Assembly: GCF_000026545.1 (NCBI RefSeq)
Contig: NC_011603.1
Origin: Escherichia coli O127:H6 str. E2348/69
GTDB lineage: Bacteria; Pseudomonadota; Gammaproteobacteria; Enterobacterales; Enterobacteriaceae
Reading direction: 5' to 3' (one strand)
DNA: 64,000 nucleotides
Each line of letters starts with the position of its first letter. Position 1 is the first letter of the stretch. This document shows positions 42,001-51,000 of this stretch, piece by piece. The position numbers were made by a program.

Positions 42001-45000
42001 TAAACAGGAGAGGAACGGAAAGAAGAGGAAGAGGAAAAGAAGAAGAACAATAACAAGCACGGTAACCACAGAAAAATAACATCAGAAAAAAAACATTCCG
42101 GACACATCACAAACAGGAAGGGTAACGGGCGACGCGTCAGCGTGGCCCGCTTCCCTTCCGGCAGGCGTCAGCCTGCCAGGGGTTTTCGCGCGGGCTGACA
42201 GGCGGCCTCCACCGCCTGCCCTGTATCACCTGTTTCTGCTGCCCTGAAGGATGTACTGACCGCCGAGGAATACAGCCTGCTGATTCGCCACAAAATCGCA
42301 GATTTCATCAACAATCTGCGCCGTGGTGAGCGGTTTCTGCCCCATTTCACGACGTCGTGCATTAATCACAGCTTTGTAATTACGCAGAATTTCGCGGGTT
42401 TCCGTGCTGATATTCATTACCCGTTCTCCCCGTCCAGCGCCTGACGCATCACCCGCATAATCTCACGTTCTTCCCTGACAAATGCGTCACCGTCGCCCCC
42501 GTTCTCGCTCCCGACAGCATGGAGGCGATAAATTTCACTACCAGCCATCACCATCACTTTTTCCAGCAGCACCGCAGGGACTGTTACAAGACGGTTTACG
42601 CGCTTTTCCTCCATCAGTTCATTGACAATATCGGAAACAACTCTGTCACATGCGCCATATACAAAAGCATCGTCCAGCCGCTGCATGACGGTTTCCAGCT
42701 CATCGTCTGTCAGACTCCAGTCCTGGGCTATGTGACGCACATCACCACGGGTCAGCACCACGGCAAAAACGCATTCACTGTCCGGCACGTCTGTATCCAG
42801 TACATCGCGGATGATCTCTTTAACAGTACAGTACATGTTCTCGTCTCCTTTACAGGGGCGGCATTGCCGCCCCGTCCGTTAATCAGTCCAGTGCCGCGTA
42901 AATCGCGTTGCATTCAGGGTGAAATTCGATGTGACGCCACAACTGCGCATCACGCATCCGGTAAAGCTGAGTCAGCCCCGCATCACCGCTGTCGTGGTAC
43001 AGCCACAACTGACGGTTAATCACAAGGGAAGTCAGAATGACACCTGCGGCATCAGCACTCACGGTACGGTCAAACCAGTTTGCACCGTTCACCATGTGGA
43101 AACGGTCGCCATCCGGCATCATGTAACCGCCACCGTCCGGCAGGCGGATGAAGTGCCAGAATCCGCCTTCATATTCCGGCATCATTTTTTTCGCCAGCGC
43201 GTATACAGACGCTTCGGCATACAGAAAATCCTGACCAAACAGGTAAGGCAGAAAAGACAGACGGTCGCACTCTTCAACGTTCAGAGTGACAGATTTCGCA
43301 TATTGCATGATGTTTTCCTCCGTTGTTCACATATTCCGCGACACCGGGCGGTGCCGTGCCTCCATAAAAGCCGGGCGATAAGGCGGGGATGCAGGGGCGC
43401 AAGGGAAGCCGCAGCCTGACGCACACGGCTGACGGGAGTTGGAGGGTGAGACCGCGAAATCTGAGCGGGTGAACGACCGGAAAATCACGGCAGACGGGAA
43501 GAAGGGACCGGGTGACCGCAGCGGCAAAGCGTACCCTTGCATCCCCGCCAGCCCGGCTAAGATGGAGGCACGGCACCGCCCGCACACGACACGGCGGCCA
43601 CAGAGCTGAAAACCCACAAGGCCATGCCCCGCATGGCCGGGTAAAGCGGAGCCGGCGGCGACTTCCTTGTATAATTATCCCACACAGAACAGATTGGTTC
43701 TGTAGTTAACACTGGGGCAAAGCAGGCCGGCGACTTCCTTTGGCCAGTGAGCCAGTCAAAAAGATAATTGCCGCTTTGCCTCTCTTTTCAGTGTATGACC
43801 GAAGGGTATCTGTGGCCCCGTACATCGGTGAGCCTGAATTTGCAAGGTAGGTCAGCTGAACTAACCGAGGAAAAGCTATGACTGTGTACATTGGAATTGA
43901 TATTGCCAGAAAGAAGTTTGATGCAGCTGAACTCTGTGACGGGGCTTACAGGTGTAAGACATTTGAAAACACCCCTGCTGGATTTACAGCGCTATACGAC
44001 TGGCTTAAAGCGGGCAGCATTCCGGACATTCATGTATGTCTTGAAGCAACAGGCAACTATGGTACTGCCCTCGCTACTTTTCTGTACGAAAAGAATCTGA
44101 AAGTGAGCGTAGTTAATCCCGCAAGAATCAAGGGATTCGCGGCTTCTGAACTTACCCGAACCAAAACCGACAAAGCTGACTCCAGACTGATTGCACGCTT
44201 TTGTAAAGCCGCGCAGCCAGATCCATGGAGACCTGTGCCCGCCCCCGTCAGAAAACTTCAGGCTCTAGTGAGACGTATCGGTGCGCTGAACGGCATGCTC
44301 AGAATGGAATGCAACCGTCGTGAAAATGCAGATATTGACGCTCAGGAATCGGTTGAACGCATGATCAACCATTTAAAGATGGAGCTTGAATCGGTGCGCC
44401 GGGCAATAAAAGAGCATATCAGTAATGTTCCTGAGCTGAAAAAACAGAACGACCTCCTGCTGTCTATTCCGGGTATTGGCACTGTTTCAGCCAGCCTGAT
44501 ACTGTCCTTCATGGCCAGTAAAGAGTTCACAAAAGCTAAGGAAGTGACCGCTTTTCTGGGGCTCAATCCCCGCCATCACCAGTCCGGAACGTCGGTTAGG
44601 GTGAAGTGGCACACTGAATTTGGCCACCTGAACAGAGGTGATATGCTCACCTCAGAACAACACAGGTGCTCCAATGAAAAAAAGAAATTTCAGCGCAGAG
44701 TTTAAACGCGAATCCGCTCAACTGGTTGTTGACCAGAACTACACGGTGGCAGATGCCGCCAAAGCTATGGATGTTGGCCTTTCCACAATGACAAGATGGG
44801 TCAAACAACTGCGTGATGAGCGTCAGGGCAAAACACCAAAAGCCTCTCCGATAACACCAGAACAAATCGAAATACGTGAGCTGAGGAAAAAGCTACAACG
44901 CATTGAAATGGAGAATGAAATATTAAAAAAGGCTACTGTAGATTCAATCTGTCAATGCAACACCCCTTTCAATTATCTCTTTCGGTGTTTTGAACTTCAG

Positions 45001-48000: not shown

Positions 48001-51000
48001 GGGCATACAAAAATGGAAGCAATACGCTGCCTGAAGCGCTATATCTCACGCGAAGTTTATACATTACTGCGTAATCAAAACAGGCAGATCAACAGCATCC
48101 CGATAACGGCTTGACTCTTAGAAGGGCGTCCAGGGTAGTCATTATACGAGCAGGCAGTTCCGGCAGTTATTGTGGCGATACCAGATCACGCAGAGTATGA
48201 GCCGGCGCGGAAACTGCTGGGATAACAGCCCAATGGAACGCTTCTTCAGGAGTCTGAAGAACGAATGGATGCCGGTGGTGGGTTACGTAAGCTTCAGCGA
48301 GGCAGCTCACGCCATAACGGACTATATCGTTGGATATTACAGCGCACTAAGACCGCACGAATATAATGGTGGGTTACCCCCAAACGAATCGGAAAATCGA
48401 TACTGGAAAAACTCTAACGCGGTGGCCAGTTTTTGTTGACCACTTCACTTCCGAAAGAAAAGCACCTGACCGGCAAGATTTTTACTCAGCGCATTGAGCG
48501 CAATAACCTGACGCTGAGAACCAGAATCAAACGGCTGGCCCGCAAAACGCTCTGTTTTTCACGTTCTATTGAGCTTCATGAAAAAGTCATCGGGGCATTC
48601 ATGGAAAAATGCATGTTCTACTAATTGGATGCATCACCGTTGAAATCACAATAACGATTTTTTTGTAAATATGCTCTCACATATGTAGGAATAGACTAGG
48701 TTGGCATTGAAACACATCTATCATGACCATAATAAAGTAATTTTTTGATATGTTTATAGTTTTATATTAATTAAAACATATCTAAAATTGATAGTTTTAA
48801 AATTGCAAAATCCATATTTTGTTTGTAATGTTTAATCTGATTATATTGAGTGGCGTTTATTATGAAAAATAAATCAGGTAATTCTTATTATAGAGAAGCG
48901 GTCGATATTCATAGCTCACTTGAGCTTTCATTTATATTGCATAAATATCATTTGCGTGTAGATGAGAAGAAATCTCGAAATGTATTCAGCGCCATACGTG
49001 ATGAGCTCATCCTTGATGGGGATTCACGACAAAACTTAGCTACTTTCTGTCAAACATGGATTGATGATGAAATCCGTGAGTTGCTTAATTTATCTATTGA
49101 TAGAAACATGATTTATAAAGATGAATATCCACAAATGGCGGAACCTGAAGGTCGCTGTGTGCGTATGCTTTCCGATTCGTGGAGTTTCCCCGATTCGCGA
49201 CACACCTTAGGTTGCTCAACCATTGGTTCATCTGAAGCTGCTATGCTCGGCCGCTTGGCGTTAAAATGGCAGTGGTGTAAAAAACGCGAAGTACAAGGTA
49301 AATCAACCGAACCTGATTTGCGGTCCTGTGCAAATATGCTGGCATAAATTCTGCCGTTACTGTGATGTGAAATTGCGTAAAATTTCACTTTATGATCATC
49401 GCCTGATAATGAATGCTGAAGAGGTTTTGAAGCATGTCGATGAAAACACTATTGGTGTCGTTACGACTTTAGGTATTACTTGTTTTTATTTTTGTAAAGC
49501 AGATTGCGTTAGTGTTTTTAAGATAAGTGTCAAGTTAATATTAGTTTTTATATTTATATCGTAATTATATGTTTCTATTTTAAAAATATTCGAGAGTATA
49601 AAAATGTCGAATGCTAATATCGCACCCAAAAGTAAGAAAATGACAGTGGGGACACTCGCTATCATGAATATAACTGCTGTAGTAAGTCTACGATTTATAC
49701 CTTCTGAAGCAGAATACGGCTTAGGTGCCATTTTTTACTATACCTTTGCTGCAATTATGTTTTTAGTACCTGTTGCCTTTGTTGCGGCTGAGCTAGCTAC
49801 AACATATCCACAAAAAGGGGGGGCATTTCGATGGATAGGAGAAGCATTTGGGGCTCGCTGGGGTTTTGTAGGAATGCTTATGACCTGGCTACAAGTCATC
49901 CCCTACTTTCCAACAGTACTGACATTTGGTGCAGTCTCGGTTGCATTTATTGATGTTGATATGGGGGTGGCAGAATCAATTGCCAGTAATAAATGGTATA
50001 TTTTATTTTTCGTACTATTTGTTTACTGGGGAGCTATTTGTGTTGCATTACGTGGCGTTGGTATTTTCTCGCAGGTATCTAAGTGGTGCGGTATTATAGG
50101 GACAATTATTCCAGCTATTATCCTTGTTATTCTTGGTTTCTCCTATCTGTGGTTCAGCGGTAAACCAGCGGTGATCCCATTAGGTTGGGGTGATCTTTTC
50201 CCTAATATAGCTAACTTCCAGAATATTGTTCTTGCCGCCAGCATATTTCTTGCTTATGCAGGGATGGAAATGAATGCGGTCCATGTTAACGATTTAGATA
50301 ATCCAACTAAAAAATACCCAATTGCAATTACCATCGCTTCTATAGGTACTATTGCAATATTCCTGCTCAGTACTTTAGGGGTCGCCTTTATTATTCCTAC
50401 AGATAAAATTAGTCTAACTCAAAGTTTGTTGGTTGCCTACGATATGCTGTTCGAATGGGCTGGAGTGCCATGGCTTGGCTCTGTGATGGCATTTATGCTA
50501 GCAATTGGCGTACTGGGTGGGGTGGTTACTTGGATTGCAGGGCCTAATACAGGTGTATTAGCGATCGCGAAAGCTGGTTATTTACCTAAGTTTTTCCAAA
50601 AAACCAATCGTCATGGAATGGGGCACCATCTGATGTTTGTACAAGGTATAATTGTCTCAGTTCTTTCTGTTACTTTTGTGATAATGCCTTCAGTTCAAGC
50701 AGCTTTTCAGATTTTATCACAGTTAACAGTTATGCTCTATTTAGTTATGTATATGCTCATGTTCGCTGGTGCTATCTATCTACGACATTCTCAACCTGAT
50801 AAAAAACGCCCATATCGAGCCCCTGCTTTATTCTTCTGGGCAACACTTGGATTCTTAGGGTCTTTTCTGGCTTTTGTATTAAGTTTTATTCCGCCCGAGC
50901 AAATCCCAACTGGTAGTCCAACCAGCTATGTTCTTTATTTGTTAGTATTAGTTGCCCTATTTTTATTAATTCCAATATTAATTTACGCCTTCCGAAAATC

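Follow-up and report, generated by a model that had tools for sequence, protein, structure and literature searches.

Nested insertion sequences of four families on the EPEC adherence-factor plasmid of Escherichia coli E2348/69: two apparently site-directed inner insertions and a probable recombination or deletion joint

The window, a stretch of 64,000 nucleotides of contig NC_011603.1 from Escherichia coli O127:H6 str. E2348/69, carries a stack of insertion sequences (ISs) in which an IS911, itself split by an IS30 and by ISEc21, is wedged between the remnants of two further elements. For every element of the stack, the transposase family was confirmed with Pfam. The features, in window coordinates, are as follows:

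43669..44601, + strand: truncated IS110-family element, without a name, left end GTATAATT...; 'IS110 family RNA-guided transposase' in RefSeq
43728..43742, + strand: candidate guide-encoding 15 nt CGGCGACTTCCTTTG, a copy of the uninterrupted R100-type target, CGGCGACTTCCTT followed by TG (R100, L013, 11775-11789)
44602-48447: IS911, with termini TGAAGTGG...CCACTTCA at 44602 and 48447
44602..44936, + strand: IS911 left segment; left inverted repeat and orfA codons 1-87 (start 44674), A6G motif included; Pfam HTH_Tnp_1
44937..46157, - strand: IS30, complete, 1221 bp, with the AC duplication at 44935-44936 and 46158-46159
46158..46756, + strand: IS911 middle segment; end of orfA, and orfB up to codons ..FHSD; Pfam rve, truncated at profile position 73 of 102
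46757..48130, + strand: ISEc21 (IS110 family), 1374 bp, limits exact by comparison with the empty site of pMAR7
46858..46867, + strand: candidate seekRNA/bridge-RNA guide CACAGCGATC in the ISEc21 non-coding region; 10 nt equal to the uninterrupted IS911 target, CACAGCGAT followed by C
46884-46888: CCCTG, 5 nt, after the candidate guide; reverse complement of the right flank CAGGG
48131..48447, + strand: IS911 right segment; orfB codons QGSHY.. through the stop, plus the right inverted repeat; Pfam rve_3 and rve_2
48448..48638, + strand: IS1-family 3' remnant, 191 bp, terminal inverted repeat ...GATGCATCACC kept; Pfam DDE_Tnp_IS1 positions 72-131 of 131

The anatomy of the stack can be read directly from its termini and reading frames. 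The original prediction had placed IS911 at 44603-48446, which is right to within one base, and had described a complete IS30 with an AC duplication inside orfA and an IS110-family element inside orfB, both of which are indeed there; no element was off by more than one base from a stated coordinate. The truncated IS110-family gene to the left of IS911 and the IS1 fragment to its right were likewise recovered, as reading frames with Pfam matches, and IS911 itself indeed lacks a 3-bp target duplication, being flanked by AGG at its left end and by CTT at its right. The inverted repeat of IS911 spans 28 nt at 75% identity, counting one flanking base per side. In-silico removal of both inserts and of one AC copy restored an IS911 of 1249 bp with orfA and orfB intact and open in a -1 frame arrangement, the A6G slippery motif ATTAAAAAAGG lying between them, and with a DDE domain represented by rve and rve_3.

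The IS30 has an intact transposase gene (44944-46095, minus strand, 383 aa; Pfam HTH_38 and rve) and inverted repeats of 26 nt at 88% identity, and was inserted 8 nt beyond the frameshift motif. This position recurs widely: the IS911/IS30 junction is found in 1216 of the 5426 complete E. coli genomes, K-12 among them, and the same site and duplication were seen at 8 other loci. A diverged relative of IS911 carries IS30 at the same site too, and at the homologous site of IS600 an IS30 is found with the same AC duplication in the opposite relative orientation. Judged from these comparisons, the site just 3' of the A6G frameshift motif appears to be a hot spot that IS30 is seen to prefer; a preference for this site in the frameshift window of IS911 and IS600 was not found in the literature searched.

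ISEc21 consists of 281 nt of 5' non-coding sequence (46757-47037), a transposase gene (47038-48114, 358 aa; Pfam DEDD_Tnp_IS110 and Transposase_20) and 16 nt downstream, and is 99.8-100% identical to copies annotated as ISEc21. A repeat search identified no terminal inverted-repeat pair at its ends, and its insertion into IS911 produced no target duplication. The insertion point, between GTTCCACAGCGAT and CAGGGTAGTC, encodes FHSD/QGS and marks the second-D codon of the IS3-family transposase gene. Site-specificity of ISEc21 has been established experimentally, with an RNA-guided target in IS3-family transposase genes; the published element has a transposase of 358 aa and a non-coding region upstream of it, and its bp 8-179, the span into which the candidate guide CACAGCGATC falls, are required (Siddiquee et al. 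2024, Nat Commun, PMC11187229). Minimum-free-energy folds of the non-coding region gave an unstable picture in which the guide segments were not consistently placed in loops, and an Rfam scan of 40000-50000 returned no relevant bridge or seek RNA family. The only gathering-level Rfam match in that interval was AS-pc01, at 41235-41336. Both inner elements, IS30 and ISEc21, lie at sites known or seen to be preferred, and neither insertion appears to be random.

The plasmid itself is well known. The window is collinear, at ~99.98% identity, with positions 38933-101558 of pMAR7, the EAF plasmid (pMAR7/pMAR2) of EPEC O127:H6 E2348/69 (NC_010862; NZ_CP059841), and pMAR7 carries the same truncated IS110-family element, IS911::IS30, IS1 remnant and gadC/murI island. 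Within the region of the stack, the sole difference is the exact 1374-bp insertion of ISEc21 into IS911, of which the left segment and the sequence flanking ISEc21 are both 100% identical to pMAR7. The empty site is observed directly in sister plasmids, ISEc21 being missing from pMAR7, NZ_CP059841 (E2348/69), CP065610, AP027874 and CH423. Since pMAR7 and another E2348/69 assembly lack ISEc21, we consider it the newest layer of the stack. IS110-family elements have been reported to excise precisely, and the plasmids without ISEc21 could in principle be revertants; we infer insertion rather than excision as the direction of this step. The original pMAR2 record has 97,978 bp, 1,375 more than the 96,603 bp of CP059841, and the window would then correspond to its last 64,000 bases.

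The host chromosome carries identical copies of ISEc21, and no second assembly of the plasmid version with ISEc21 was found in the collections searched, as might be expected if the ISEc21 layer, or even the whole stack, were an assembly artefact of collapsed or mis-joined repeats. We nevertheless consider this highly improbable. Apart from ISEc21, the structure is the same throughout in three complete plasmid records that are independent of one another, pMAR7 included, so that those junctions are neither a chance match nor a one-off misassembly. The ISEc21 junctions are exact, fall at the canonical target and lie within an IS911 that is 100% identical to that of pMAR7. The best-matching chromosomal ISEc21 of E2348/69, 100.0% identical to that of the window, resides in a different IS3-family element between the flanks TTCCATAGCGAC and CAGGGAAGCC, and could therefore not have supplied the window junctions. 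Finally, the same triple composite has been assembled independently in 57 genomes.

From context to context, nested copies of IS30 and of IS110 are 0-5 nt apart, and the IS911-like backbones differ by up to 16%. The internal junctions of the full IS911::IS30::IS110 composite are identical in at least 7 unrelated contexts, and two plasmid copies (L002 and L008) match the composite of the window at 99.6% identity, which would fit a single origin of the composite, followed by its spread as a unit (in trans or by recombination) and by precise excision of an ancestral ISEc21 from pMAR7 and its relatives. The segment-by-segment differences disfavor such a history, and we regard it as improbable. In the chromosomal composites and in those of Klebsiella, the IS110 element is a 92.6% variant, yet their IS911 backbone can be as much as 100% identical to that of the window (L004); conversely, other backbones have diverged from the IS911 of the window by 4-11% per segment (all three segments in L006 and L007) around near-identical inserts. 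In addition, ISEc21 is missing from all five relatives whose context is the same or overlaps, IS600 carries an IS30 at its homologous site in the opposite orientation, the site-specificity of ISEc21 is experimentally established (PMC11187229), and no composite has a duplication marking its transposition as a unit. We put forward, at about even odds, that IS911-type (IS3-family) elements are convergent homing targets of two unrelated ISs, both of which strike sequence under functional constraint, IS30 through a DNA hot spot just 3' of the frameshift motif and ISEc21-type elements through an RNA guide directed at the catalytic second-D codon, and that the composite has been assembled repeatedly and independently, a signature of IS competition rather than of the history of one lineage. 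The ISEc21 half of this reading is already published. The view that the pile records successive rearrangements holds for the nesting and was overstated for the two inner layers, which appear to be simple site-directed insertions in a composite that recurs in dozens of genomes. This suggests that, in many nested IS stacks of E. coli, the arrangement tells of the target preference of the elements and not of past rearrangements, which is relevant for annotators and for plasmid phylogenies inferred from IS junctions.

The left remnant comprises 209 nt of 5' non-coding sequence (43669-43877), in which direct comparison with R100 placed the 15-nt target copy CGGCGACTTCCTTTG, and transposase codons 1-241 of 323 (43878-44600; Pfam DEDD_Tnp_IS110 and a partial Transposase_20), where it is cut by the left end of IS911. 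Similarity to the R100 backbone ends at 43668, the left edge of this remnant; in 12 other plasmids this backbone site holds a full-length copy of the element, and in L011 and L012 full-length 323-aa copies sit at that same plasmid site. On the right, the IS1 remnant shares ~97% identity with a full-length IS1 variant (L015) of ETEC plasmids. With the ISEc30 copy at ~52017-52777 it shares only 79% identity, and the two were rejected as identical ends of a composite transposon around the gad island.

IS911 thus joins two unrelated truncated elements. The whole plasmid lacks the pieces reciprocal to this joint: the IS110-like element is without its 3' part and the IS1 variant without its 5' part, and there is no second IS911. 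An inversion at IS911, instead of a deletion, was rejected on the same grounds. From these junctions, IS911 is probably a recombination or deletion joint. The original prediction, which had favored IS-mediated deletion or recombination over simple insertion, is supported here by the lack of duplication, the unrelated truncated flanks and the absent reciprocal halves. An ancestral junction was not found: chimeric probes for the predicted junctions (IS911 right end with the IS110-like 3' part, and IS1 5' part with the IS911 left end) found neither in PLSDB or in the 5426 complete E. coli genomes. A target duplication is likewise missing from every other IS911-type copy checked, both in seven composites with their own flanks (L002-L007 and L009) and in the intact IS911 of the nanXY locus in two strains. 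The missing duplication is therefore weak evidence for any particular event, and the intact nanXY copy weakens it as a special mark of the composite.

The right junction, in which IS911 is followed by the IS1 remnant and the gad island, is common to plasmids with differing left flanks, in keeping with a recombination or deletion joint. An older, shared right junction with a variable left one would be expected of one-ended activity at the left end, and the deletion may have been made by the IS911 transposase itself, with a single copy, most simply the one in the IS1 element, transposing intramolecularly by its left end into the IS110-family transposase gene. The end product would be that of homologous recombination: no duplication, a single IS911 and no reciprocal pieces. 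However, IS911 and other IS3-family elements move mainly by copy-out/paste-in via a circle, and adjacent deletions are not known as a typical product. Moreover, orfA is already split by IS30 in the plasmids sharing this left junction, so either a further IS911 copy would have had to supply the transposase or the deletion would have taken place before IS30 arrived. We consider a transposase-made deletion unlikely, and homologous recombination between two IS911 copies the likeliest route.

The stack had been proposed to occupy the place where ssb, psiB, psiA and hok would be expected, which turned out to be incorrect. Every leading-region gene, the antirestriction gene (42883-43308) included, lies on the minus strand and is directed to oriT/traM, which has the lower coordinates, and the stack lies oriT-distal of the antirestriction gene, while R100 has ssb on its oriT-proximal side. 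In IncF plasmids, we take psiB, psiA and hok to lie between the DUF932/SLT genes by oriT and the methyltransferase/DUF3560/antirestriction block, all directed toward oriT. On the side of the stack, R100 instead has a gene for a 258-aa hypothetical protein, a second DUF1380 gene, a DNA methylase gene and parM/parR. Comparison with R100 showed the ssb...hok block to be missing near 36748, where the junction has no IS and falls within a repeated upstream element, ~7 kb to the left of the stack. By this alignment, ssb/psiB/psiA/hok are expected at ~36.7 kb, across the antirestriction gene from the stack, and were lost there. Comparison with related plasmids has thus located this loss, and yielded no ancestral IS911 junction; the stack should no longer be taken to mark the loss of the SOS-inhibition and ssb genes.

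Taken together, we propose, with a probability of roughly 0.65, that this four-family IS stack, on the oriT-distal margin of the leading region in an EPEC adherence-factor plasmid (pMAR2/pMAR7 type), was built in four steps. First, an IS110-family element would have inserted into its preferred site, GGCGACTTCCTT followed by TG, upstream of a hairpin and the antirestriction gene. Second, elsewhere, IS30 would have entered, at its hot spot, an IS911 that already lay inside an IS1-family element adjoining the decarboxylase-pseudogene/gadC/murI island. Third, an IS911-based recombination or deletion would have joined the IS911::IS30/IS1 module to the IS110-family element, most likely through homologous recombination between two IS911 copies in direct orientation, which lay within the IS110-family transposase gene and within the IS1 element, respectively, leaving a hybrid IS911 without duplication and removing the intervening DNA; we infer the mechanism and the partners of this step from its end product. 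Fourth, ISEc21 would have inserted into orfB of IS911, at the published RNA-guided target and again without duplication.

The nested pile of four ISs is real, and essentially already known, as an ordinary, already-sequenced feature of pMAR2/pMAR7. By itself it carries little weight, consisting of annotated transposase remnants on a long-known virulence plasmid. It is useful as a naturally occurring and datable case in which RNA-guided ISEc21 moved between chromosome and plasmid within one laboratory strain lineage.

Several known systems can be set beside it. The IS911A::IS30D of E. coli K-12 (yjhU-fec region) has the same IS911/IS30 left junction nucleotide, with 98% identity over a 100-nt junction probe, but lacks an IS110-family insert and has inverted IS600 sequence as the right flank of IS30D, which marks that IS30 as a recombinant of copies in IS911 and IS600. 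Hybrid ISs without target duplications at deletion or cointegrate joints have been described for plasmid copies of IS1, IS26 and IS3-family elements; the IS911 of the window resembles these in its single copy, unrelated flanks, missing duplication and loss of neighboring DNA, and differs in that partner junctions proving the mechanism were not found in PLSDB or the 5426 genomes. The ISEc21 layer, finally, follows the published target system (PMC11187229) in its lack of duplication, its single orientation and its upstream non-coding sequence matching the target, and joining its ends likewise gives a readable junction promoter, with TTGACT from the right end and AATAAT from the left end spaced 17 nt apart. 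The example hosts named there are ISCfr6, ISEc92 and ISEc93, whereas the host here is an IS911 already split by IS30, on a virulence plasmid.

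The nested stack of insertion sequences described in the original prediction was recovered in the ORF list, in the repeat search and in the raw sequence alike, and Pfam backed each of its family assignments. Its components are:

44602-48447, IS911, with ends TGAAGTGG at 44602 and CCACTTCA at 48447 (raw sequence, repeat search)
44937-46157, minus strand, IS30 with an intact ORF of 383 aa; 1221 bp, 26-bp inverted repeats, AC on each side
46757-48130, ISEc21 of the IS110 family (ORF list, repeat search, raw sequence)
from 43878, left neighbour: IS110-family transposase ORF cut after codon 241, the 3' end beyond it being gone
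up to 48638, right neighbour: last 191 bp of an IS1-family element, a variant known from ETEC plasmids

These limits correct earlier ones for IS911 that lay one base too far inward at each end. Taking out both inserts and one AC copy, a check that had been proposed, left an IS911 of 1249 bp in which orfA and orfB are open and the A6G frameshift motif is present, and the IS911 backbone is therefore otherwise undamaged.

The claim that IS911 is a joint rather than a simple insertion held up: the 3 bp flanking it (AGG on the left vs CTT on the right) form no duplication, both neighbours are truncated, and the missing pieces are absent across the whole plasmid, which holds no second IS911, no 3' part of the IS110-like element and no 5' part of the IS1 variant. 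As there are no reciprocal pieces, the event was either a deletion or an inter-molecular joint, and an inversion at IS911 is ruled out by the same absences. The right junction, in which IS911::IS30 is followed by the IS1 remnant and then by a decarboxylase pseudogene, gadC and murI, is common to AP027874, CP091396 and CH423, while the left flanks differ; the right junction is therefore the older of the two and moves as a module, recombination having produced the left one. We favor, with a probability of about 0.5-0.6, homologous recombination between two IS911 copies as the event that would have created the outer joint, over a one-ended deletion mediated by IS911, which we consider an unlikely source of it. 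Neither PLSDB nor the E. coli genome set yielded a match to chimeric probes for the two predicted ancestral junctions. An identification of the IS1 remnant as ISEc30 was rejected at only 79% identity. The adjoining segment (48639-52800) carries the decarboxylase pseudogene, frameshifted in the annotation of relatives, gadC and murI, and is bounded on its right by ISEc30; this module is shared, together with the joint between IS911::IS30 and the IS1 remnant, by plasmids of other backbones.

On the left, the unnamed IS110-family element starts at 43669, directly after the end of similarity to plasmid R100. Full-length copies, with a 323-aa transposase, were found at this very position, upstream of the antirestriction gene, on 12 other plasmids, one of them from Pantoea; this leading-region target lies between GGCGACTTCCTT and TG, and a 15-mer at 43728-43742 is a candidate guide segment. 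Within 43669-43742, the first 72 nt of the element finish with a 12-mer identical to the left flank of the target, and the number of tandem copies of this 72-nt unit varies from 0 through 1 to 2 across three plasmids (L011, plasmid p111, 5980-6060; L012, 3938-4090). The Pantoea copy has the same variant in flank and internal 12-mer, GACATCCTT instead of GACTTCCTT. The guide-encoding DNA of this element may serve as a pseudo-target at which excision and insertion occur. In p111, the stop codon of the full-length transposase gene is the exact site of a MITE-like insertion of ~255 bp (7129-7388), whose terminal inverted repeats are GGGGGCAGTTTGGA...TCCAAACTGCCCCC. Shortly upstream of the antirestriction gene, a long and imperfect inverted repeat (43345-43582) is predicted to fold as a ~240-nt single-stranded-DNA hairpin (-76 kcal/mol, z = -5.75) and resembles the single-strand promoter/initiation hairpins of leading regions; the left element is inserted ~85 nt past it.

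The inner layers had also been read as successive rearrangements, which overstates them, ISEc21 and probably IS30 being ordinary target-directed insertions. The IS110-family element within IS911 is 99.8-100% identical to copies annotated as ISEc21, and one 100.0% match is a chromosomal ISEc21 of E2348/69, located in a different IS3-family element. ISEc21 inserts in a single orientation without duplication and needs an RNA from its own upstream non-coding region (Siddiquee et al. 2024, PMC11187229). In the window, its site lies between GTTCCACAGCGAT and CAGGGTAGTC, coding for FHSD and QGS, respectively, and exactly matches the published target position. The non-coding region holds a 10-nt copy of the uninterrupted target (CACAGCGATC at 46858-46867), downstream of which CCCTG is complementary to the right flank. 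Joining the ends of the element would place TTGACT and AATAAT at a distance of 17 nt, in agreement with the junction promoter of PMC11187229. The stack region is 100% identical to that of the EPEC plasmid pMAR7 (NC_010862) and the E2348/69 plasmid NZ_CP059841, both of which lack 1374 bp. In a direct comparison, window segments 31001-46756 and 48131-61601 are adjacent in pMAR7 with zero gap and zero overlap, and the element is therefore an exact insertion without duplication, for which the sister plasmids carry the empty site (pMAR7 38933 corresponds to the first base of the window, and 101558, extrapolated from the collinear alignment, to its last). Since ISEc21 is absent from five relatives having this context wholly or partly, gain in the window lineage is the parsimonious direction, which would make this insertion the latest event in the stack.

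IS30 lies 8 nt beyond the A6G motif of IS911, whose candidate hot-spot sequence is the 30-bp ATATTAAAAAAGGCTACCGCGCTCTTGATG. Of 5426 complete E. coli genomes, 1216 matched a 100-nt probe over the left IS911/IS30 junction (coverage at least 80%), K-12 W3110 and MG1655 among them. On an ST131 chromosome, IS600 is split by IS30 at the homologous position (..TTAAAAAAAGCA[AC]CGCGTATTTT...), with the identical 2-bp duplication and the opposite orientation to the host element, and IS30 also occupies this site in a more diverged IS911 relative. IS30D of K-12 (L019, W3110 4512-4514 kb, and L020) is flanked by IS911 at one end and by inverted IS600 at the other, and is therefore a recombinant of two IS30 copies that had entered different IS3-family elements, each at the frameshift window. 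This repeated use of the IS911/IS600 site points to a sequence hot spot.

The full IS911::IS30::IS110 unit (3846 bp) was present in one piece in 57 of the 5426 genomes, and also on Klebsiella plasmids. We compared seven contexts of this composite besides the window segment by segment. In the five composites from chromosomes and from Klebsiella (L003-L007), the IS30 copies are 2-3 nt apart and the IS110 copies, a 92.6% variant of ISEc21, 0-5 nt apart, while the IS911-like backbones of the composites diverge by as much as 16%; the divergence extends over all three backbone segments in L006 and L007, and L004 carries the variant IS110 on a backbone with only 2 differences from the window. Near-identical inserts in diverged backbones, and the variant on a near-window backbone, speak against a single ancestral composite; the pattern is what site-directed insertion, repeated in different IS911-family backbones, would produce. 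Target duplications were absent from all composite copies examined. Two other strains carry an intact IS911 at the K-12 nanXY locus, again without one; among the IS911 copies sampled, lack of a duplication is thus common. Before the composite on plasmid pSTK39-3-E-B (L008 2977-3024), the opening 24 nt of the left end of IS911 occur twice in tandem, TGAAGTGGCACACTGAATTTGGCC.

The leading-region genes, the antirestriction gene included, lie on the minus strand and are directed toward oriT/traM at lower coordinates. In R100, ssb stands on the oriT-proximal side of the antirestriction gene, while the side corresponding to the pile holds a 258-aa hypothetical gene, a second DUF1380 gene, a DNA methylase and parM/parR. 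The pile is therefore the oriT-distal boundary of the leading region, and the expectation of ssb, psiB, psiA and hok beside it was not borne out: comparison with R100 maps the missing ssb...hok block to ~36748, an IS-free junction. At this point the region upstream of ssb directly meets the gene beside DUF932 through a repeated upstream element (36760-37196; similar sequence at 41472-42011), whose copies (36700-37200 and 41472-42011) are 83-90% identical, and the loss of ssb-psiB-psiA-hok, a block expected in an IncF leading region, looks like a deletion between direct repeats. No ssb, psiA or psiB is annotated in the pMAR7 stretches examined. What was lost at the pile may instead be the R100-type methylase/DUF1380 block, not the SOS-inhibition genes. 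The IS4-family element ISEc13 (37582-39130) was ruled out as the cause of the ssb...hok loss, as it is a simple insertion in a methyltransferase gene with a 9-bp duplication, GGACGCAAC. A second, inverted ISEc13 copy at 1-557 is cut by the window start, and 41235-41336 (plus strand) matches Rfam AS-pc01 (antisense RNA to pHK01_035) at gathering score (79.4 bits, E = 4.6e-13).

Earlier records cover the plasmid, the IS911::IS30 arrangement of K-12 and the target of ISEc21; all that is mildly new is the evidence pointing to the frameshift window of IS3-family elements as a hot spot for IS30.
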